The notes beneath the pieces were generated by a model. The model saw only the letters and a list, made by a program, of their open reading frames with translations. It did no database searches and was not told where the DNA came from. A stretch of DNA of 64,000 nucleotides from Candidatus Saccharimonadales bacterium (GTDB lineage: Bacteria > Patescibacteriota > Saccharimonadia > UBA4664 > SCTI01). Positions 33,404-61,540 of this stretch are shown here, one piece after another. Each line of letters begins with the position of its first letter. Positions within the stretch are counted from its first letter, which is position 1. Where the stretch lies: NCBI GenBank assembly GCA_035479795.1, contig DATIII010000002.1, forward strand, positions 84,034 to 148,033. The letters run 5' to 3'. A program made the translations under genes and the position numbers.

Positions 33404-33667
33404 CTAACCTGGTACAACCCTGTGCGCAAGCATGGCTAGAAGCTGTAATAGCAAAAAAGCTGCCAGCGGCGTGAAATCAAAAATCCCAGTATTGGGTAAT
33501 AATCGCCGAATTGGCGCCATTATTGGCTCCGTCAGTTCCATAATTAACACCCCAAAGCCACCAGTCGGCATCGGATTCACCCAACTCATCAATACCCGGA
33601 TCAGGATCAAAAGGTTAAATACGAGGACGAAGAGGTCGATGAAGTTGACAACTATCTGGGCCAGCAT
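33404..33667 (-). CDS. yggT: YggT/Ycf19 family membrane protein
   Basis: 87 aa, two transmembrane helices, YggT pattern. Its position upstream of ileS matches the ylmG-ileS synteny. Confidence 0.8.
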   Translation of the reverse strand: MLAQIVVNFIDLFVLVFNLLILIRVLMSWVNPMPTGGFGVLIMELTEPIMAPIRRLLPNTGIFDFTPLAAFLLLQLLAMLAHRVVPG

Positions 33668-33922
33668 CTATGAGTTAGCCAAATAAGAGATGTCAGCAAC
33701 TAGTGGTAGTTGGTCCCATTTGGCCGCAACTTGGCCATCCTGACGCGCCAACACCACGGCCGGGCGGGCCAGAACATCATATAGTTCGGCTAACCGGATG
33801 CCTTCATTCGAATCAGCATCGAGCAGTTTGACATCTACCTTGGCCTTTTCGAGTTCACTTTTAAACCTAGCTATGTCCCGTTCCTCGGGTCCACCGGCGG
33901 TATAAAAAACGTAGGCAGTCAT
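33668..33922 (-). CDS. Hypothetical 84-aa protein
   Basis: An ORF between the nrdJ terminator and yggT. I do not recognise a motif. Confidence 0.45.
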   Translation of the reverse strand: MTAYVFYTAGGPEERDIARFKSELEKAKVDVKLLDADSNEGIRLAELYDVLARPAVVLARQDGQVAAKWDQLPLVADISYLANS

Positions 33923-33966: not shown

Positions 33967-34000
33967 AAGGGCTGGGTACGCTTTCGCGCACCCAGCCCTT
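33967..34000 (-). terminator. Terminator hairpin downstream of nrdJ (11-bp perfect stem)
   Basis: AAGGGCTGGGT ...12 nt... ACCCAGCCCTT, read directly. Confidence 0.65.
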
Positions 34001-34011
34001 GGTTTGCGGTA

Positions 34012-36858
34012 TTAGCCGCAGCCGGTGTTGTTACCACAGCTGTTGCAGGTGTAGCACGAGCCCGTCCGCTGCATCATGCCGCCGCACTGGCTGCAGGCCG
34101 GACCCAGCTCCAGGCCGGGCAGGCTGTGGTTGCCATTGCTGGGGGCGGCCGTGATGGACGAACCCATCTCGGCGGTCTCGTTGGCCTTGACCTCGGACGG
34201 CACCTCGGAGGGCGCCACCTCGGTCACCTTCATCTCGCCGGCCGCACCATCGACGAGGGTGGTCTCGGCCAGCTCGGGGATCTGAATACCCAGAGCCTCC
34301 ATGTGCTCGGGCTCGTGCCGCATGTAACGCGACGCCAGCCAGCGCATGATGTAGTCAGGCATGGACTTGGCGAACGGGATCTCCGGGTTGCGGGTAATCC
34401 CCTCTGGCTCGAACTTCATGTGCGAGAACTTGTACACCAGCGTCTCGAGCGGCACCCCGTACTGGAGCGCGATCGAAATCGCCGTGGCAAAGGAGTTCAT
34501 CATCCCCCGCAAGGTCGATCCCTCCTTGCCAATGTCGGTGAGGAAGATCTCCCCAACGGTGCCGTCCTCGTACAAGCCGGCGGTGATGTACCACTCGAAC
34601 CCGGCCACCTCGGCCTTGTGCGTCAGCGACTGCCGCTCCTTGGGCATGCGGTTGCGACGCGGGCCGGCCTCAGCGATGGCCTTGGCCACGATGGCCTCGA
34701 CATCGCTGGGGGTGTAGGCGGCCTTGGCCGCCTGCTTCTTGCCCCCGACGGTGACGTAGGCCTGGGCGGCCTTGGAGCCGTCGACGTAGAGTGCCAGGGC
34801 CTTGACCCCGTGCTTCCACGCCTGGATGTAGGCGTCCATCACGTCCTCGGCGGTGGCCTTCGCAGGGAGGTTGACCGTCTTGGAAATGGCGCCAGAGATG
34901 AAGGGCTGAACCGACCCCATCATCTTGATGTGCCCCATGTGGCTGATCGCCCGCGCCCCAACCGCAACGTCGAACACCGGGAGATGGTCGTCGGACAGGT
35001 GCGGCGCATCGGACAGGTCACCCTTGGCATCGAGGTGCTCGAGGATCTCGTCGATGTGATTCGACTTGTACCCCAAGCTCTCCAGAGCCGGCCGAACCGA
35101 CTGATTGACCATCTTGATCCGGCCGCCGCCCACTAGGTCCTTGAGCTTCACCAAGGAGAAGTCGGGCTCGACGCCGGTGGTGTCGCAATCCATCAGGAAC
35201 GAGATCGTCCCCGTCGGCGCTAGCACCGTGGCCTGGGCGTTGCGGTAGCCATTGATCTCGCCCTCGGCGACCGCTGCTTCCCAGTCCTCCTGGGCTGCAG
35301 CCAGCAGCATGGAGTCCGAGCAGTGCTCGATCTCGCGGCTGGCGTCGCGATGCATGCGCATCACGTTGTTGTGTGGCTCGCGGTTCTCCTCGTAGCGGTC
35401 GTAGGGGCCGACAGCCTCAGCGAACCGCGCCGAGTTGAGGTAGGCCCGTCCGGTCATCAGCGCCGTGATAGCGGCAGCCAGCCCGCGACCCTCGTCGGAG
35501 TCATAGGGCAGGCCGCTCTGCATCAGGTAGGCGCCAAGATCGGCGTAGCCGAGACCAAGCTGCCGGAAAGCCCGTGCGTTGTCCCCGATCTTCTCGGTGG
35601 GATAGCTGGACGGGCCAACGATGATCTCCTGCGCCAGGTAGACGATGTCGACGACGTGGCGCATGGTTGCGACGTCGAACGTGCCATCCGGAAGCCGAAA
35701 CTTGGTCAGACGCAGCGAGGCCAGGTTGCAAGCCGAATCGTCGACATGCATGTACTCGCTGCACGGGTTCGAGGCGTTGATGCGCCCCGAGTTCGGGCAG
35801 GTGTGCCACTGGTTGATGATGGTGTCGAACTGAATGCCGGGGTCAGCGCAGCGCCAGGCTGCGTCGGCCACCGCCACCATCAGCTCGCGAGCCGTCATCG
35901 GCTGACCCGTCTCCGGATCGACCACGTCATGCTGTGAGCCGTCGATCCGCCACCGGACTTGCCAGGGCGCCGTCTCCCCACCCTCCACCAGCGACATGAA
36001 GTCGTCGGTGACGCGGATGGAGTTGTTGGCATTCTGGAAGGGCACCCGCCAGCGATCCTTGCCGTCGACGGACACGTCGTAGCCGAGCGCGTCCAGCTCC
36101 TTGGCAAAGTCCTCAGCATCCGCCTTGCAGCGGGCAAAATGGAGGATGTCCGGATGGTCGACCTCTAGGACAACCATCTTGGCGGCCCGGCGGGTCTTGC
36201 CACCGGACTTGATGACCCCGGCCCAGGCGTCAGCGCCGAGCATGAAGGACACTGGGCCCGAAGCGGTGCCGCCCTTACTGAGCGGCTCCATCGACCCACG
36301 GATCTTCGACAGGTTGATGCCGGAACCCGACCCACCTCGGAAGATCTTCCCCTCCTGGGTGTTCCAGAAGAGGATGTCGTCCATCTCGTCCTCTGTTGAG
36401 AGGATGAAGCAAGCCGAGCACTGCGGCTGCTCCTCGAATCCGACGTTGAACCAGACAGGGCTGTTGAAGGCCGCATACTGGTGGAGCAGGATGTGGGTCA
36501 ACTCGTCGCGAAAGGCGTTGCCGTCTTCCTCGGTCGCGAAGTAACCCAGCTCCTGACCCCAAGCGGCGATCGTGCCGGCAACGCGGCCGATCATCTGCTT
36601 GACGCTGTTCTCGCGCGCCGGCTTATCCAGCTGGCCGCGGAAGTACTTCTGCGACACAATGTTGGTCGCGGTCAAGCTCCAGGTCTTGGGGAACTCGACA
36701 TTCTTCTGCTTGAAGCTGGGGTTGTCAGGATCGCCGATCAGCGCCGTCCGCTTCTCCCACTCGACAGAGTCGAAGGGGTCGGCACCAGGCGTCGTGAAAA
36801 CGCGGCGGACCACCAGACCAGAGTCCTGATCCAGGCGCTGCTGCATGGTTCCAGCCAT
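34012..36858 (-). CDS. nrdJ: Class II (adenosylcobalamin-dependent) ribonucleotide reductase
   Basis: 948 aa with a class II RNR core and a C-terminal Cys-rich tail (CSQCGG...CYTCNSCG). Clearly GC-richer than its neighbours, with long antisense ORFs. Confidence 0.92.
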   Translation of the reverse strand: MAGTMQQRLDQDSGLVVRRVFTTPGADPFDSVEWEKRTALIGDPDNPSFKQKNVEFPKTWSLTATNIVSQKYFRGQLDKPARENSVKQMIGRVAGTIAAWGQELGYFATEEDGNAFRDELTHILLHQYAAFNSPVWFNVGFEEQPQCSACFILSTEDEMDDILFWNTQEGKIFRGGSGSGINLSKIRGSMEPLSKGGTASGPVSFMLGADAWAGVIKSGGKTRRAAKMVVLEVDHPDILHFARCKADAEDFAKELDALGYDVSVDGKDRWRVPFQNANNSIRVTDDFMSLVEGGETAPWQVRWRIDGSQHDVVDPETGQPMTARELMVAVADAAWRCADPGIQFDTIINQWHTCPNSGRINASNPCSEYMHVDDSACNLASLRLTKFRLPDGTFDVATMRHVVDIVYLAQEIIVGPSSYPTEKIGDNARAFRQLGLGYADLGAYLMQSGLPYDSDEGRGLAAAITALMTGRAYLNSARFAEAVGPYDRYEENREPHNNVMRMHRDASREIEHCSDSMLLAAAQEDWEAAVAEGEINGYRNAQATVLAPTGTISFLMDCDTTGVEPDFSLVKLKDLVGGGRIKMVNQSVRPALESLGYKSNHIDEILEHLDAKGDLSDAPHLSDDHLPVFDVAVGARAISHMGHIKMMGSVQPFISGAISKTVNLPAKATAEDVMDAYIQAWKHGVKALALYVDGSKAAQAYVTVGGKKQAAKAAYTPSDVEAIVAKAIAEAGPRRNRMPKERQSLTHKAEVAGFEWYITAGLYEDGTVGEIFLTDIGKEGSTLRGMMNSFATAISIALQYGVPLETLVYKFSHMKFEPEGITRNPEIPFAKSMPDYIMRWLASRYMRHEPEHMEALGIQIPELAETTLVDGAAGEMKVTEVAPSEVPSEVKANETAEMGSSITAAPSNGNHSLPGLELGPACSQCGGMMQRTGSCYTCNSCGNNTGCG

Positions 36859-37070
36859 GTTGATTCTCCTTCCTGCCGCTTTTCGGGCAGATCGTTTGAA
36901 ATGCCCTCGGCAGTCAGACTTGTTGACTTACGTTTGAGAGGACAGGCGAGGTCCTTAAGCACCCTCACCTAAGGTGCCTCGAGTGTCATCTCATGTAAGT
37001 GTTTTTCAACGTTCGTTTGGGTTTAGTACCCATCTGGCCGCTCGAACCACCTCGAGAAGCCGGACGGGGA

Positions 37071-37553
37071 TTAAACCTGCCCGAGACTGCGGGATTTTAG
37101 CTTGGCTACCTCCGCTTCAAAGCTTTCAATGTCGGCAAATGAGCGATACACACTGGCAAACCGTACGTAAGCCACATCGTCCAAGCCCATCAACTTGGTC
37201 ATTACAATCTCGCCGACTTTGGCCGCTGGAATCTCCGCCTCGCCGATGGCCCGGACCTCTCGCTCGATTTCATCAATGACTTCCTCGATCCGGCCAATCG
37301 AAATCGGGCGCTTTTCAGTAGCCCGGTACAGGCCACCCGCCACCTTTTGACGATTAAACGGCTCACGGCGGCCGTCCTTTTTAACTATGGCCACACTCGG
37401 CCGTTCCAGCCGCTCATAGGTTGTAAAGCGCAGACCACACTTAAGACACTGCCGACGCCGGCGAATTGATGCCCCCTCTTCTAAGTCACGTGACTCGATG
37501 ACCTTAGAGTCTAAATATTCACACTCGTGACACTTCACGTGCTTCCCCCACAT
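37071..37553 (-). CDS. nrdR: Transcriptional repressor NrdR (Zn-ribbon + ATP-cone)
   Basis: VKCHECEYLDSKVIESR Zn ribbon and SIRRRRQC. The start could be the ATG at 37553 or a GTG 15 nt downstream. Confidence 0.9.
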   Translation of the reverse strand: MWGKHVKCHECEYLDSKVIESRDLEEGASIRRRRQCLKCGLRFTTYERLERPSVAIVKKDGRREPFNRQKVAGGLYRATEKRPISIGRIEEVIDEIEREVRAIGEAEIPAAKVGEIVMTKLMGLDDVAYVRFASVYRSFADIESFEAEVAKLKSRSLGQV

Positions 37554-37569
37554 TTAGCGTAACCTTTAT

Positions 37570-37629
37570 ACACTATAACGCTAGGCTTACGGATGCCGTC
37601 AAGGCGCTTTTGCACACAATATCTGTAGG
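37570..37629 (-). promoter_or_regulatory. nrdR promoter region with two NrdR-box-like half-site-conserved elements (ACACTATAA..., ACACAATAT...)
   Basis: Plus-strand 37570-37585 and 37614-37629 read against the NrdR-box consensus acaCwAtATaTwGtgt. The left halves are good and the right halves are degenerate. The elements overlap a CTTGAC...TTATAG promoter-like sequence on the minus strand. Confidence 0.35.
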
Positions 37630-37720: not shown

Positions 37721-39028
37721 TTACTTTTTGCGGCGTAGGAAGGCAGGTATGTCCAAATCATCCTGCTCCAACCCCAGAGCAGAGTCCATGACCGGCATGA
37801 CCTTTGGCTTCTCGTCCGGCTTTGGTTGGTTTTTTGGCTCAGCATCAGGCTCAATCGAGCTGACGCTTGGGCGCACGGGCTCATCGAAAACCGATAAGTC
37901 ACCACCTGTATCGATCGGCTCGTCAATAAATGGCCCACTCGCAAATCGATTAGCCACCGGGAGACTTTCTGGCTTTTCCAAAACTTCATCCTCAAAGCTA
38001 CTGAAGCCCGGTTCCGCCACCACCGCCTCACGACGAACAGCACTGTGGCTAAAGATCGGTCGTTGTGCTCGGCGTTCGCCGTCAAAACCGGTGGCCACCA
38101 CCGTAATCTTGATATCATCATCCATCGTCTCATCGAGCACGGCACCAAATATGATGTTAGCGCTGGGATCAACCGCTTCAGTAATAACTTTGGCTGCCTC
38201 ATCAATCTCGTGCATGCTCATATTGCGGCCACCAGTGATATTGAACAGTACCCCCTTGGCACCATCGATTGAGACCTCTAGTAGAGGTGAGTCAATCGCC
38301 TGTTTGGCGGCTTCAACAGCTCGATTCTCACCCTTGGCCCGACCGATGCCCATCAGAGCTGAACCAGCGTCTTGCATGATCGACTTAACATCGGCGAAAT
38401 CTAGGTTAATCAAACCGTGAACGGTAATTAGATCGGAAACACCTTGAACACCCTGCTGCAGTACATCATCTACGACCTTAAAGGCGTCAAGCAGACTGGT
38501 TTTGCGATCAATCATTTCTAGAAGCTTGTCATTCGGCACGGTAATTAAAGTGTCAACGTTCCCCTTTAGCTCCTCAATCCCGCGGTCAGCGCTGGACATC
38601 CGGCGTTCGCCTTCAAAACTAAACGGCTTGGTTACAATGCCGATGACTAGCGAGCCGGCCTCCCGAGCTGCCGCTGCAATCAGTGGAGCTGCTCCCGTAC
38701 CGGTTCCGCCACCCAAACCAGCGGTTATAAAGACCATGTCGGCCCCCCGCAGCATCTTGGTAAGATCTTGTTCACTTTCCTCGGCCGCCCGCCGGCCAAT
38801 CTCTGGATCGGCTCCAGCACCCAAGCCCCTGGTTAGGGTCTGTCCGATGTGGACTTTTTGAGTGGCATGGGAATGATGCAGCGACTGAGCATCTGTATTG
38901 ACCGCTACAAACTCAATGCCATGCACCTTAGATTTGACCATTCTTTCGACGGCTGCAGTGCCGCCGCCGCCCACACCTACCACTTTAATACGGGCAAATG
39001 TTTGTATTTCCGGTAAAACTTCAGCCAT
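37721..39028 (-). CDS. ftsZ: Cell division GTPase FtsZ
   Basis: GGGTGTG tubulin signature and a long Pro/Glu-rich C-terminal linker. AAGGAG RBS. Confidence 0.95.
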   Translation of the reverse strand: MAEVLPEIQTFARIKVVGVGGGGTAAVERMVKSKVHGIEFVAVNTDAQSLHHSHATQKVHIGQTLTRGLGAGADPEIGRRAAEESEQDLTKMLRGADMVFITAGLGGGTGTGAAPLIAAAAREAGSLVIGIVTKPFSFEGERRMSSADRGIEELKGNVDTLITVPNDKLLEMIDRKTSLLDAFKVVDDVLQQGVQGVSDLITVHGLINLDFADVKSIMQDAGSALMGIGRAKGENRAVEAAKQAIDSPLLEVSIDGAKGVLFNITGGRNMSMHEIDEAAKVITEAVDPSANIIFGAVLDETMDDDIKITVVATGFDGERRAQRPIFSHSAVRREAVVAEPGFSSFEDEVLEKPESLPVANRFASGPFIDEPIDTGGDLSVFDEPVRPSVSSIEPDAEPKNQPKPDEKPKVMPVMDSALGLEQDDLDIPAFLRRKK

Positions 39029-39282: not shown

Positions 39283-40575
39283 TTAGGGCAGAAACTTTTT
39301 AATGGACTTTCTAAGTCGGTCAACGGTCTGTCCAATTCTAACGTTGGCCTTGTCAGCGGTGTGTAGCGGGGCCACTGTCATATTCTCTAGCATCAGCCCG
39401 ACTGGGGCCGCATAGGCGGGATCACTAACCTTCTCGCTTAGGCCACTCAAGCCCTCTGGCCTCCCGATTAGCACTGGTAGCTTCAATAAATCCTTAGCTA
39501 CATCCTCGATGCCAGGTAAATTAGCGCCGCCACCGGTTAAGACCACCCCTCCCGGGAGCATCCCGTCCTTGCCAATCTTCTTAAACTCACTTCGCACCAT
39601 ATGCAAAATTTCTTCCAGTCGGGCCCTGGCAATACCATAGAGATCCTTCTTAGCCACCACCGACTCATTACCCAATTCCTCGATTTTGAGCTTTTCGTTG
39701 GGATTAACCTTAGCCGTCGTGGCTTTAACGTATTTGAGCTTAATCTTTTCCGCCACTTCGATATCCGTCCGCAGACCAATGGCGATATCGTTAGTAATAT
39801 GCATAGCGCCAACCGGTAGAATACTCGAGTACAGGACCTCCCCCTCCTCGTACACGGCTACCCCAGTAGTGCCACCGCCGATATCGACAACCGCCACGCC
39901 GAGCTCCTTCTGCTTCTTGGTTAATACCGCACTAGCGGCCGCCAACGGGACCAACACTTGGCTTTCAACATCAATACCAGCCTGATAAATGCTGCGGTGG
40001 AGGTTTTTGATAGCCGGAGTAGAGCCAGTCACAATATGAGCTTCCACCTCGAGCTTAATGCCGTTCATGCCCACGGGGTCCTTGATGTTATCCTGACCAT
40101 CTACCGTAAATGAGCGTGGGAAGACCTGGATAATCTCACGATTAGGCGGCAGCTGGACGGTTGAAGCATGCTCCTCGGCGCGCCGGATATCATCAATGGA
40201 TATTTCCTGATCCGCCCGGCCAACCACAATCTCACCTTTGGAATTAATACTTTCCACGTGAGCTCCATCAATGCTGATTGTGGCTCGATCGATTGGTACC
40301 CCCGAGATGCGCTCGGCCTCATCGACGGCCGCCGTTATAGCCGAAACTGTTTCTTCAATGTCGACCACCACACCTTTACGCATACCACTAGTGGGCGCCA
40401 CGCCGACACCGATTACGCTTGGCTGAGCCGCATCTTCTTCCTGCAAACCAACAATGCAGCACACTTTAGTACTGCCAATATCGAGACCTATATAAACATT
40501 TTCTGCTCTGTTGGTTGCCAAAAGATTTCTCTGATTCGTCACCTTATTATAGTGCTTGTGCTCTTCTAAAGGCAA
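39283..40575 (-). CDS. ftsA: Cell division protein FtsA
   Basis: Actin-fold motifs GLDIGSTKV and VVDIGGGTTGVAV. Confidence 0.9.
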   Translation of the reverse strand: MPLEEHKHYNKVTNQRNLLATNRAENVYIGLDIGSTKVCCIVGLQEEDAAQPSVIGVGVAPTSGMRKGVVVDIEETVSAITAAVDEAERISGVPIDRATISIDGAHVESINSKGEIVVGRADQEISIDDIRRAEEHASTVQLPPNREIIQVFPRSFTVDGQDNIKDPVGMNGIKLEVEAHIVTGSTPAIKNLHRSIYQAGIDVESQVLVPLAAASAVLTKKQKELGVAVVDIGGGTTGVAVYEEGEVLYSSILPVGAMHITNDIAIGLRTDIEVAEKIKLKYVKATTAKVNPNEKLKIEELGNESVVAKKDLYGIARARLEEILHMVRSEFKKIGKDGMLPGGVVLTGGGANLPGIEDVAKDLLKLPVLIGRPEGLSGLSEKVSDPAYAAPVGLMLENMTVAPLHTADKANVRIGQTVDRLRKSIKKFLP

Positions 40576-44240: not shown

Positions 44241-44594
44241 CTAGGTGATGATCGCCCGCTGCCGGTTCGGCGCCCGCCGGATGACCGGCGGCTGGCGATC
44301 GGGCTGTGACATCTTCGGCGGTGTCACCGGCGCCTGCTCGCGGATGAACCGCCAGACGCACCTTATGGCAACGTAGAACACCGGATCCTTCGCCCTCCGG
44401 CAGCCCCGGTCGCCGTAGTTCAGCACCCGAATCTTCAGCCGATCGAAGTCACGATCTGCCACCAGCTGGCTGGCATCATGCGAGTCCTCGCCGAAGTGCT
44501 TGGCCAGGAAGATCATGCCCACACGGGCCAGATGCTCCTGACGGCGCAGTCGAGTGGTCAACTCGAGGCTGTAAGCCGGCTTGGACGCCTTCAC
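44241..44594 (-). CDS. Hypothetical 117-aa protein (module 2, GTG start overlapping upstream stop as GTGA)
   Basis: Translationally coupled to the upstream 78-aa ORF. Contains an RLRRQEH segment. Family unknown. Confidence 0.5.
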   Translation of the reverse strand: MKASKPAYSLELTTRLRRQEHLARVGMIFLAKHFGEDSHDASQLVADRDFDRLKIRVLNYGDRGCRRAKDPVFYVAIRCVWRFIREQAPVTPPKMSQPDRQPPVIRRAPNRQRAIIT

Positions 44595-59671: not shown

Positions 59672-59702
59672 TCGCGTACTCAAAGAAACTTAAATTGGGA
59701 TA

Positions 59703-59735
59703 CTGCCCCAGGAACCTCCTTGGTTCCTGGGGCAG
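59703..59735. terminator. 14-bp perfect-stem hairpin between convergent ABC exporter and module-3 operon
   Basis: CTGCCCCAGGAACC tcctt GGTTCCTGGGGCAG, read directly. No U-run on the plus strand and a weak one on the minus strand. Confidence 0.6.
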
Positions 59736-59759
59736 CTGGATACAACTCCCGTTGGGTGG

Positions 59760-60380
59760 CTAGCCGCCGAGCTTCTGCAGCTTGGCCAGGAAGCCCGACT
59801 TGGGCTTCGGGGCCGGGTCGCCTGCCGGCCGGGACCGGATGGGTTCCGGCTCGGGCTCGACTGCCCTCCGGGGCCGAGCCGCAGGGGGCGGCTCCGTCGT
59901 CCGGATGTCGTCGAGGATCAGGCGCTGCCGCGGGCCGCGAAGGCGGTCTGCGATTTCAGCATCCTCCCGAGCGCGACGACTGCGTTCTGCCTCAAGCGAG
60001 GCGTGCTGGTCCTCCAACCTAATGAGCTCAGCTTCGAGCTCATTGAAGGTCCGTGTCGCAGCGATAGCCGCATTCTCGGCGGCCGCCACCTCTTCCCGCT
60101 TTGAGAGAATCCTCTCGCGCAGGCTTGGAGCCGGAGCGGGATCAGCCGCCGGGGCGGCCGGCGTGACGAACGCGAAATCCGCTCCGGGGAAAGCCGGAGC
60201 TGCAGCCACGGGAGCCGGCCCAGGTGTCGGTGCGGCAGCCGGAGCGGGCTCCGGCTGGGCGGCCACAGGGGCCGCAGCGGGTGCCGAAGCCCCCGAGTCG
60301 TTGTCGGGCACAGGGATGGAAACGGCAGCGTCTGCTGTCGCCTCGGCCTCGGCCACGATCGCTTCGATGTCGCTCGACAT
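59760..60380 (-). CDS. Hypothetical Ala/Pro-rich protein with central coiled coil (module 3, second gene)
   Basis: AGGAGGG RBS 4 nt upstream of the ATG. 206 aa. Low-complexity AP-rich N-terminal half, then a REEVAAAENA...LEAELIRLEDQHASLEAE coiled coil. Confidence 0.5.
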   Translation of the reverse strand: MSSDIEAIVAEAEATADAAVSIPVPDNDSGASAPAAAPVAAQPEPAPAAAPTPGPAPVAAAPAFPGADFAFVTPAAPAADPAPAPSLRERILSKREEVAAAENAAIAATRTFNELEAELIRLEDQHASLEAERSRRAREDAEIADRLRGPRQRLILDDIRTTEPPPAARPRRAVEPEPEPIRSRPAGDPAPKPKSGFLAKLQKLGG

Positions 60381-60388
60381 CAGCCCTC

Positions 60389-61318
60389 CTAGTCGTTGAC
60401 CAGCAGGCCGAGTTCAGCCCGCTTCTCGTTTTTCAGGATCTCCGCCCTGGCCTTGATTTCCCTGGCCTTGGCGGGGTACTTCGCGATCTGGCCGGCAATG
60501 GCCAGATCGAACTCCTTGACCCACTCCACGAACGCCTCCTTGCGGGCGACGTGCTTGGGATGGGTCTCGAGGTGCTGAGCCACGAGCCGCACCAGAAGGT
60601 ACGGCACATCCGCGATGCCCGACACCAGGTTCTCCCAGATGTCGGAACGAGAGTCGAAGAACGCATCTTCGCTCTCAAACCGCGGATCGCCGCAGATGAT
60701 GCACCTCGACGAGGCGCTCGCGGCAAACGACAACTGGCCCATGAGCCGGATGCGTGCGTTGAGGCAATCCCGGCAAAAACGCGGGAAAGGCGACGTGCGC
60801 ACATCCTTGCGCTGACCGCGCCTGCGAACATCCCGAGGATTGGCGATCACGTTGTGATCGCACACCCCGAGGTATTCGTAGTAGCCCTGCTGGCTCTCCT
60901 GGGCCATCGAGACCTTGGGATCGGGCGGGTTCCAGGTCGGCAGCGCCGCCTGATCCGTCTCCACCTGCTGATCGATGTCCATGAGAAGCGTCAGGTCCTG
61001 GCGAACGATCGCCTCCAGCTCGGGGTCGATCTCGGTCGAGCCGTTGACCTTCCCCTGCCGGCGAAGTGCCGGATAGGCAGTGGCGAAGTACACGGGCTTG
61101 ATGCCCCTGAGCCCTTGCGCCACGAAGCCACCCAGCAGCTTGTCGATTGTGACCTTCCGAGAAGCCTCGGACTCCAGCTTCGCGAACTCTTCGGGAGAGA
61201 TCTTGGAGCCCTCCTTCAAGCCCGAGCGCTCGAGAATGTCAGCCATCTGCTCGATGGTCAGCCCCACATCAGGGGCCACCTTGCGAGCCAGACGGTTTCC
61301 GGTTGCCGTGGTCGGCAT
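60389..61318 (-). CDS. Hypothetical 310-aa protein with Cys cluster (CDHN...CRDC...CIIC; putative zinc ribbon) (module 3, first gene)
   Basis: Start at MPTTATGN, with GGAGG 6 nt upstream. The Cys spacing was read directly. I do not recognise a family. Confidence 0.5.
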   Translation of the reverse strand: MPTTATGNRLARKVAPDVGLTIEQMADILERSGLKEGSKISPEEFAKLESEASRKVTIDKLLGGFVAQGLRGIKPVYFATAYPALRRQGKVNGSTEIDPELEAIVRQDLTLLMDIDQQVETDQAALPTWNPPDPKVSMAQESQQGYYEYLGVCDHNVIANPRDVRRRGQRKDVRTSPFPRFCRDCLNARIRLMGQLSFAASASSRCIICGDPRFESEDAFFDSRSDIWENLVSGIADVPYLLVRLVAQHLETHPKHVARKEAFVEWVKEFDLAIAGQIAKYPAKAREIKARAEILKNEKRAELGLLVND

Positions 61319-61540
61319 TGAACCTCCAGGTTGGAGAGAGATTCGCCAGTCGTAGGTCGGCGACACCTTCTAGGGATCGCCTTCCGGCGACGGGTTACTA
61401 CTCGTCTCTTAGAGGAGACGACCGGTTACAGCATGTTTCGGGTGTGTATCCAAGGCCTTTTAAGGGCCTTTGGGTACGAAACTTTATCTAGATTTCAAAC
61501 TCCAACAGATGAGAAATGGGTTCCTCAAGTGCAATGGAGT

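Follow-up and report, generated by a model that had tools for sequence, protein, structure and literature searches.

A Solirubrobacterales-type nrdJ in the nrdR slot of a Saccharimonadia division cluster: evidence for replacement of the reading frame and for a GC-rich codon signature that persists

The 64-kb window of Candidatus Saccharimonadales DNA considered here (the whole stretch analysed, to which all coordinates refer) carries, within a cell-division gene cluster, a gene for the class II ribonucleotide reductase (RNR), nrdJ, that is much richer in G+C than its neighbours. How did such a gene come to lie there? The initial annotation pointed out that nrdR-nrdJ, arranged as in Streptomyces, interrupts the cluster, and saw this as consistent with import of the RNR from a high-GC donor. 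Our analysis supports a foreign origin for nrdJ, as a horizontally acquired gene of high-GC actinobacterial (Solirubrobacterales) type. Judged by its sequence, the adjacent regulator gene nrdR is native, and the foreign part of the locus appears to be the nrdJ open reading frame (ORF) only. The import is shared by related lineages, a recent private event being unlikely, and its GC-rich codon signature seems to be maintained and not to be a fading relic.

The compositional contrast that drew attention to the locus is real and sharply bounded. In 1-kb windows the GC content is 0.61-0.65 at 34001-37000 and about 0.52 on both sides, and a finer-scale scan puts the edges of this plateau at most about 50 nt from the ends of the nrdJ ORF. 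The gene has a GC content of 0.642 and a third-position GC content (GC3) of 0.867; the 15 other genes of the locus with at least 150 codons have a mean GC3 of 0.579 with a standard deviation (sd) of 0.028, which leaves nrdJ about 10 sd away. This excess is far larger than the deviation at first and second codon positions (GC1/GC2). The antisense ORFs of several hundred codons that had been reported inside nrdJ are also there, with lengths of 336, 204, 163 and 147 codons. A functional antisense gene behind the synonymous constraint was considered and rejected: the antisense ORFs of the window are fragmented, and high GC3 is expected to bring such ORFs along as a by-product. As the cause of the high GC3, translational selection was likewise rejected, since rplU, ftsZ, ileS and other genes of the window have no such excess. 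In the related locus L006 (10439-13969; also in L007 and L008) an unbroken ORF of 1177 codons runs antisense to the entire 1031-codon nrdJ, a by-product of extreme GC3 that can mislead gene callers and longest-ORF heuristics; our locus survey gave BLAST-supported ORFs priority over longest ORFs.

From which group could the gene have come? Among 5.8 billion clustered proteins the closest relatives of the window NrdJ, its match to itself aside, are 67-69% identical, and every named one belongs to Solirubrobacterales, Solirubrobacteraceae, Conexibacter or Baekduia. When representatives at 50% identity were searched exhaustively with HMMER, a Solirubrobacterales-type cluster stood alone at 67-72%, with all others at 57% or less. 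The likeness begins at about residue 12 and continues, the C-terminal Cys-rich (Zn-finger) tail included, as far as the stop codon. In neighbour-joining (NJ) trees that included native Saccharimonadia NrdJ and diverse representatives, the window protein, its Saccharimonadia counterparts and the Solirubrobacterales-type NrdJ form a clade with a bootstrap value of 1.0. The window NrdJ does not branch with the native-type NrdJ of its own lineage, which is found in about 90 loci, forms a separate group with GC3 near that of its neighbours, and is 47-54% identical to the window protein and 51-62% identical to those of Solirubrobacterales. In the three nearest actinobacterial loci (L089-L091, including Conexibacter sp. 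SYSU D00693) the GC3 of nrdJ is 0.91-0.99. The proposed import from a high-GC donor can thus be retained for nrdJ, although not for nrdR and not as a recent private event. A phage or viral source was rejected, the best matches being 43% among phage records and 33% in IMG/VR.

Whether anything else was imported depends on the surroundings of the gene. All genes of the locus lie on the minus strand, in the following layout:

39283-40575, minus strand: ftsA (Pfam/NCBIfam)
37721-39028, minus strand: ftsZ (Pfam/NCBIfam)
37071-37553, minus strand: nrdR (Pfam Zn_ribbon_NrdR and ATP-cone)
36859-37070, minus strand: nrdR-nrdJ leader (spacer), 212 nt
34012-36858, minus strand: nrdJ, class II (B12-dependent) RNR, 948 amino acids (aa)
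33967-34000, minus strand: GC-rich hairpin AAGGGCTGGGT..ACCCAGCCCTT, 12 nt past the nrdJ stop, read from the sequence
33668-33922, minus strand: conserved hypothetical gene, 84 aa, GC3 0.49, no Pfam match
33404-33667, minus strand: yggT (Pfam YGGT)

After yggT follow ileS, ftsW/rodA and rplU. We surveyed gene order in the surroundings of NrdR homologs and by NrdR-anchored scans of species-representative genomes and metagenomes (the best match of the metagenome scan was 60% among the matches listed, and members of the subclade were reached via exact-protein look-ups). The order map-ftsA-ftsZ-nrdR-nrdJ-hypothetical-yggT-ileS-ftsW-rplU recurs across Saccharimonadia: ftsZ-nrdR(-nrdJ)-ileS is present in about 95 of their loci, most of them with native-type nrdJ. 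In about 90 loci the gene after nrdR encodes a native-type NrdJ, assigned to the same NCBIfam equivalog (NF005122), and the GC3 of this gene differs from that of its neighbours by -0.09 to +0.155 (median about +0.04), much as that of ileS does. The hypothetical gene and yggT follow the RNR gene in L004, L006, L174 and L176 too. Since this gene order is ancestral and native-type nrdJ occupies the same slot, the native nrdJ was replaced and nothing was inserted. The description of nrdR-nrdJ as an interruption of the ftsA-ftsZ...yggT-ileS cluster therefore holds relative to Bacillus but not within the lineage, where the order is conserved.

The regulator gene fits this native frame. Its GC3 of 0.596 is in line with its neighbours, and the best matches of its product are NrdR of Saccharimonadales/Patescibacteria at 99, 87, 75% and below. 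In the nearest actinobacterial genomes (L089-L091) there is no nrdR upstream of nrdJ, which lies near tmk/holB or between unrelated genes. A joint import of nrdR and nrdJ is contradicted by these results, and the Streptomyces-like pairing loses its value as a pointer to the donor: it is a convergent gene order that says nothing on the donor, because the division-cluster order is ancestral to Saccharimonadia and the native nrdJ was replaced in place. In L011 and L033 (by ORF pattern also in L047 and L062) the order is ftsZ-nrdR-ileS-ftsW with no RNR gene after nrdR; hence nrdR keeps its place in the division cluster where nrdJ lies elsewhere or is lost. A class I RNR in L011/L033, which the ORFs of about 970 and 375 aa after nrdR might have encoded, was rejected, since by Pfam these are ileS and ftsW.

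The vicinity of nrdJ bears no trace of a mobile element. No direct repeats bracket the ORF, no tRNAs occur anywhere in the 64-kb window and no mobility genes lie near nrdJ; without flanking repeats, tRNAs or mobility genes, a mobile or genomic island insertion was rejected. The gene content of the region is identical to that of relatives, with no extra genes.

Is the foreign gene peculiar to the window? Six lineages have Solirubrobacterales-type nrdJ in the same slot, and another has a different NrdJ family there:

L001 (the window): Solirubrobacterales-type, nrdJ GC3 0.867, host GC3 0.579
L002 (5' fragment): Solirubrobacterales-type, nrdJ GC3 0.868, host GC3 0.62
L006: Solirubrobacterales-type, nrdJ GC3 0.887, host GC3 0.62
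L172: Solirubrobacterales-type, nrdJ GC3 0.903, host GC3 0.68
L174: Solirubrobacterales-type, nrdJ GC3 0.653, host GC3 0.40
L176: Solirubrobacterales-type, nrdJ GC3 0.775, host GC3 0.58
L004: different NrdJ family, nrdJ GC3 0.71, host GC3 0.51

The NrdJ of L004 is 28% identical to that of the window and is best matched by NF006417/TIGR02504. Its nrdJ, too, is GC3-rich (+0.20). The contig of this locus (GCA_035536395.1, DATLOE010000017.1) bears the label Candidatus Dormibacteraeota, yet its gene order is that of Saccharimonadia, its NrdR is 75% identical to that of the window and its leader element is the same, on account of which it is probably mis-binned.

In the lineages with a foreign nrdJ its GC3 exceeds that of the host by +0.19 to +0.29. 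Regression of nrdJ GC3 on host GC3 gives a slope of 0.94, an intercept of +0.28 and an r of 0.94; expressed as log-odds (logit), the offset is 0.9-1.6 across hosts whose GC3 ranges from 0.40 to 0.68. Along each nrdJ the GC3 is even, with an sd of about the binomial expectation. In every pair compared, the native flanking genes are saturated or nearly so at their fourfold sites; this includes L006-L172, whose FtsA proteins are 89% identical. Under simple relaxation in a two-state model, a starting excess of at most 0.38 would be expected to have fallen below about 0.1 by now. The decay of donor composition (amelioration) that is thus expected was not seen in the six lineages; moreover, the nrdJ of L174 has followed its host's GC3 drop of 0.22 with the offset kept, and is therefore no decaying relic.

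The foreign proteins also share features of their own. Four insertions absent from more than 100 Solirubrobacterales sequences are distributed among them: TExQP in L006, L174 and L176; PxHPAxV in L006, L172 and L174; IG..GILGHI in L174 and L176; and, in L006 and L172, an insert of 35 aa. Matching distributions are found for eight derived NrdJ substitutions, and a database search with the L006 protein gave no match above 70% and no actinobacterial relative with the insertions. Polarisation of signature sites with outgroups was mostly uninformative (11 of 14 sites undetermined). These proteins have diverged unusually far: the ratio of NrdJ to FtsA divergence is 1.1-3.5 in the xenologs (the foreign alleles) vs 0.70 (5-95% range 0.58-0.98) in 1081 native pairs, the L006 and L172 proteins being 62% identical where about 85% is expected, and NrdJ divergence is decoupled from host divergence in the xenolog lineages. 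L176 is a mosaic. Its centre carries the insertions common to L006 and L174, while in its C-terminal third the signature states of the P0002/P0243 group are found at 9 of 12 sites vs 6 of 23 elsewhere (Fisher p = 0.011) and some windows are 95-98% identical to that group; these signatures imply that actinobacterial DNA re-converted part of the gene at least once.

How can these observations be combined? In the account that we favour, a Solirubrobacterales-type class II RNR gene replaced the native nrdJ ORF in the ancestor(s) of one Saccharimonadia subclade, over a stretch reaching essentially from start codon to stop codon. The recipient's nrdR, promoter/operator, structured leader and downstream genes were kept. 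The import would be old and largely inherited, with derived insertions shared by some alleles. Protein evolution in the alleles would since have been unusually rapid, and actinobacterial DNA would have overwritten part of at least one of them (L176) once more. GC3 would be held about 0.2-0.3 above that of the host by short-patch recombination with actinobacterial-host DNA, by GC-biased gene conversion, or by both. Taken jointly, an ORF-precise xenologous replacement, an old import and a maintained GC-rich signature make an account that we hold with good, though not complete, confidence. For the offset itself the most likely cause would be repeated short-patch recombination with GC-rich actinobacterial-host DNA and/or GC-biased gene conversion at a recombination-prone locus.

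Several observations weigh against parts of this account. The five Saccharimonadia xenologs never form one clade in NJ trees (bootstrap 0), and L176 nests with P0243 in a Solirubrobacterales subclade (bootstrap 0.82-0.93, NJ), so that one acquisition may not account for them all; the trees are distance-based, and long-branch attraction is likely. The window allele has none of the derived insertions or characters of the L006/L172/L174/L176 group, and could be a separate import. A sliding-window search found no fresh conversion tracts in it, and the actinobacterial nrdJ DNA sequences covered were three in number. The amelioration argument, finally, takes a simple model of relaxation and the data of six lineages as its basis.

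Some quite different readings of the locus can be largely set aside. Import of a Streptomyces-type nrdR-nrdJ operon as a unit, inserted into the ftsZ...yggT-ileS cluster, would account both for an nrdR that adjoins nrdJ as in the nrdRJ operon of S. coelicolor (PMC13584703) and for an nrdJ that is GC-rich and of actinobacterial type; it is nonetheless very improbable, as the nrdR has a neighbour-like GC3 and its nearest relatives, at 75-99%, in Saccharimonadia, the gene order exists in about 95 loci mostly with native-type nrdJ and in some without any, and the nrdJ of Solirubrobacterales has no nrdR upstream. Still less credible is a native nrdJ under lineage-wide selection for GC-rich codons with no transfer at all. 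The RNR gene in the slot is indeed GC3-rich in 7 of 7 related lineages, but about 90 other Saccharimonadia nrdJ are compositionally normal and stand apart at 47-54% identity, and the window NrdJ groups with Solirubrobacterales at the maximal bootstrap value given above. An assembly or binning chimera, with an actinobacterial fragment joined into a Saccharimonadia contig, might be suspected wherever a contig of a metagenome-assembled genome (MAG) shows an abrupt change in GC; its probability here is close to nil, given that the same junctions and synteny occur in independent NCBI, JGI, ENA and Logan assemblies, that the breakpoints coincide with the ORF ends, and that no actinobacterial sequence is more than 69% identical to the protein.

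The remaining alternatives concern the number of imports and the origin of the offset. Each lineage (window/L002, L006, L172, L174 and L176) could have received its own, fairly recent import from unsampled high-GC actinobacteria, the excess then being a relic that has not yet ameliorated. The non-monophyly of the xenologs in NJ trees would follow, as would the lack of relation between NrdJ and host divergence, the different donor signature of L176 and the fact that in every sliding window each allele is nearer to Solirubrobacterales than to the other alleles; the case of L004 makes clear that another NrdJ family can take over the slot, and there are other GC3-rich orphan genes in the window. 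However, among the 5.8 billion clustered proteins none was found that exceeds 70% identity with any allele, despite the dense sampling of Solirubrobacterales, whose proteins show 75-81% mutual identity; derived insertions absent from Solirubrobacterales are common to L006, L172, L174 and L176; a near-constant offset that tracks host GC3 with a slope of 0.94 is unexpected for imports of differing age; and five events would be needed at identical ORF boundaries, without flanking homology in the closest actinobacterial genomes. We consider this reading improbable. A more serious possibility, even if on balance an unlikely one, is a single old import followed by a stationary force within the recipient that pushes synonymous sites towards G/C, be it a hotspot of GC-biased gene conversion or selection on synonymous sites or mRNA, with no further actinobacterial input. 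The constant logit offset and the evenness of GC3 along the gene agree with it, and between L006 and L172 the excess of fourfold-site identity is 0.23 in nrdJ, whose protein is the more diverged, vs 0.06 in the genes on either side. From the reticulate pattern of indels, alleles seem to have recombined with one another. GC-biased gene conversion raises protein divergence, and the protein divergence is elevated in the way such conversion causes. Against it, native-type nrdJ, with the same slot and function, has almost no offset (its median of +0.04 is like that of ileS), and the force must therefore be tied to the foreign sequence, not to the locus; the ribosomal and division genes of the window are without such a bias, and L176 shows that actinobacterial input recurred at least once. 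One may finally imagine that the slot is kept 'actinobacterial' by repeated patch conversion with host nrdJ fragments that the episymbiont takes up. This would explain the absence of amelioration, alleles that are nearer to Solirubrobacterales than to their sisters, and an NrdJ divergence decoupled from the host genome; we regard it as rather unlikely. Were it true, the offset would be a running record of DNA flow from host to epibiont, and Solirubrobacterales would be the hosts of this uncultured soil lineage.

What of the sequence between nrdR and nrdJ? The leader (36859-37070) has a GC content of about 0.50-0.53, like the recipient genome, and can be aligned with those of L002, L004, L006, L172, L174 and L176. 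The palindrome and the ACTTAC...GTAAGT arms described in it by the initial annotation are present, and the elements are:

36922-37009, minus strand: central long hairpin (RNAalifold, covariation, covariance model)
36976-36966, minus strand: palindrome CACCTTAGGTG, 5+1+5, within the leader
36866-36890, minus strand: hairpin CUGCC-N8-GGCAG, adjoining the ribosome-binding site (RBS) and followed by the Shine-Dalgarno (SD) motif AAGGAG, just upstream of the nrdJ ATG

That these symmetric elements reflect RNA structure is well borne out. The minimum free energy (MFE) of the leader is -84.2 kcal/mol vs -60.1 ± 4.6 in shuffled sequences (z = -5.2). In the central hairpin the outer stem pairs ACUUAC (37000-36995) with GUAAGU (36931-36926) and encloses nested helices and an apical loop GAGGGU; the palindrome CACCUUAGGUG (36976-36966) is part of the apical stem. 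RNAalifold of the seven leaders shows compensatory changes in 11 of 18 consensus pairs, with 81.7% of cells paired vs 66.4 ± 2.7 in 500 shuffles, none of which reached the observed value. Covariation amounts to 0.595 vs 0.304 in shuffles, where again none of 500 came as high, and slid partners score 0.11-0.26. A covariance model of the central hairpin (R1) matches only the seven subclade leaders among 100 sources, and neither native-type loci nor the three actinobacterial loci. The RBS-adjoining hairpin is kept in L001, L002 and L004, and in L006 as CUGCUU..AAGCAG. No Rfam match was found for the window leader at E up to 1, nor for the seven related loci at the gathering score, and scans for canonical promoters and terminators gave no call within the leader. 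It is a conserved structured element of the recipient lineage, and its hairpin is a candidate for a new cis-regulatory RNA of B12-dependent RNR. Native-type nrdJ leaders (L012, L014, L019, L024, L040) have another conserved motif, TTGACrGCTCTC..CGG..GTAGAGAGCTC..GAGAGA..AACTCTAACAAAC, whose arms appear to pair; this second candidate RNR leader RNA has no Rfam match either.

NrdR boxes are absent from the leader in a scan of the six key positions and lie instead at the nrdR promoter. By the published criteria a box has 16 bp with key positions C4, A6, A8, T9, T11 and G13, and boxes are paired with a linker predominantly of 15-16 bp, or of 26-27 bp (PMC13584703). The strict consensus ACACWATATATWGTGT, with up to 4 mismatches, has no match near nrdR or nrdJ. 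Upstream of nrdR are found:

37545-37560, minus strand: NrdR box ACGCTAAATGTGGGGG, 6 of 6 key positions, just upstream of the nrdR start
37578-37593, minus strand: degenerate partner box TCCGTAAGCCTAGCGT, matching at 3 of 6 key positions and separated from ACGCTAAATGTGGGGG by 17 bp
37572-37602, minus strand: promoter-like block, -35 TTGACG (37602-37597), 19-nt spacer, TATAGT (37577-37572)

A lone 6/6 match is not significant, there being 17 per strand in the window. A 6/6 box stands at the same relative position in 14 of 15 loci, native and subclade, and L024 has a 5/6 + 5/6 pair there. Native lineages (L012, L014, L017, L027, L028, L040, L043) have 5/6 and 6/6 boxes with the 17-bp spacing; in the xenolog-bearing subclade the upstream box has decayed to 3-4 of 6 key positions. 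The partner box overlaps the promoter-like block, which is conserved in 7 of 7 subclade loci and was missed by the consensus promoter scan because its spacer is 19 nt. The nrdR-nrdJ operon is probably autoregulated from a promoter with NrdR boxes, on the premise that the two genes are co-transcribed. Since homologs of NrdR align only from residue 6, its start is probably the GTG at 37538, giving a protein of 155 aa.

Both proteins have the domains that their names imply. NrdJ has PF08471 (RNR2_N), the PF02867 barrel (1.9e-128) and PF12637 (TSCPD), and scores 1281 bits against NF005122 (cut-off 859) and 545 against TIGR02504 (cut-off 400). NrdR has PF22811 (Zn-ribbon) and PF03477 (ATP-cone), with 188 bits against TIGR00244 vs a cut-off of 125. 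The window NrdJ retains 171 of the 175 columns that are at least 97% invariant across 96 other NrdJ, with all 10 invariant Cys, and very probably is an active B12-dependent enzyme; the four deviating columns (N383R, N440D, A649S and R692V) are unusual replacements that would fit accelerated evolution. The hairpin just past the nrdJ stop is terminator-like but has no T-run, and was not flagged by the terminator scan. The 84-aa hypothetical protein, 44-48% identical between relatives, is found between the RNR gene and yggT in all relatives examined, where SepF-like genes stand in Gram-positive division clusters.

How unusual is such a locus? RNR genes are reportedly often transferred across phyla, as is said in the RNR literature, for example by Lundin and colleagues. 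As in other xenologous displacements of RNR, an essential gene has given way to a homolog of a distant phylum, with phylogenetic and compositional conflict. Here, in contrast, the swap is ORF-precise within a conserved regulator-leader-gene slot of the division cluster, at least two foreign NrdJ families occupy that slot in sister lineages, and the foreign composition outlasts synonymous saturation. With the nrdRJ operon of S. coelicolor (PMC13584703, PMC9110341) the locus shares an nrdR directly upstream of a class II nrdJ, an NrdR of Zn-ribbon and ATP-cone, and an NrdR box at the nrdR promoter that implies autoregulation; it differs in that its gene order does not come from the donor and its NrdR is of Saccharimonadia type, in a box spacing of 17 bp, not 15-16 bp, with one strong box in the window, and in the 212-nt structured leader between the two genes. 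Like the RNAs of Rfam 15 that regulate RNR or B12 genes in cis, including the cobalamin riboswitch, the leader is a long, conserved, structured 5' element before a B12-dependent enzyme gene, but it matches no family and has a long hairpin with a GGGUG-containing apical loop in seven related loci only. Codon-usage responses after horizontal gene transfer (HGT) have been treated elsewhere (PMC8461475). The gene would have started, as in the amelioration model of Lawrence and Ochman, with the composition of a donor in a recipient of another mutational equilibrium; the difference is that the expected decay is unseen, the offset of +0.19 to +0.29 persisting with a slope of 0.94 on host GC3.

The hosts of cultured Saccharibacteria are reported to be Actinobacteria only, nucleotide biosynthesis is reportedly missing from these bacteria, and HGT has served for guesses at their hosts (PMC11659515). 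The donor phylum of the present nrdJ is the host phylum of these cultured Saccharibacteria, and the recipient group is one without nucleotide biosynthesis; host-derived DNA is thus a plausible source of the gene. The literature searched did not yield the donor group (Solirubrobacterales, Thermoleophilia) with nrdJ, and full-text searches found no report of an nrdJ replacement in Saccharibacteria. As RNR transfer and gene flow from Actinobacteria to Saccharibacteria are both expected, the plain call of HGT is a modest one. Of greater consequence, the ORF-precise swap shows how a reduced episymbiont can exchange an essential enzyme with its regulation untouched, and a foreign codon signature in at least six anciently diverged lineages runs counter to the usual practice of timing recent transfers by their GC3 deviation. 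The fixed offset points to an ongoing and measurable process that favours GC, and the donor group becomes a testable candidate host for an uncultured clade of soil Saccharimonadia.

Other genes of the window are rich in GC as well. A second GC-rich island at 59700-61400 (GC 0.62-0.75, minus strand) consists of two orphan genes without Pfam matches, one at 60389-61366 (minus strand; 325 aa, GC3 0.81) and the other, Ala/Pro-rich, at 59760-60380 (minus strand; 206 aa, GC3 0.74); these may be further imports from a high-GC source. A third orphan, of 117 aa (44241-44594, minus strand; GC3 0.84, no Pfam match), stands in a run of small hypothetical genes flanked by the Band_7 and HIT genes, where relatives have other small ORFs.

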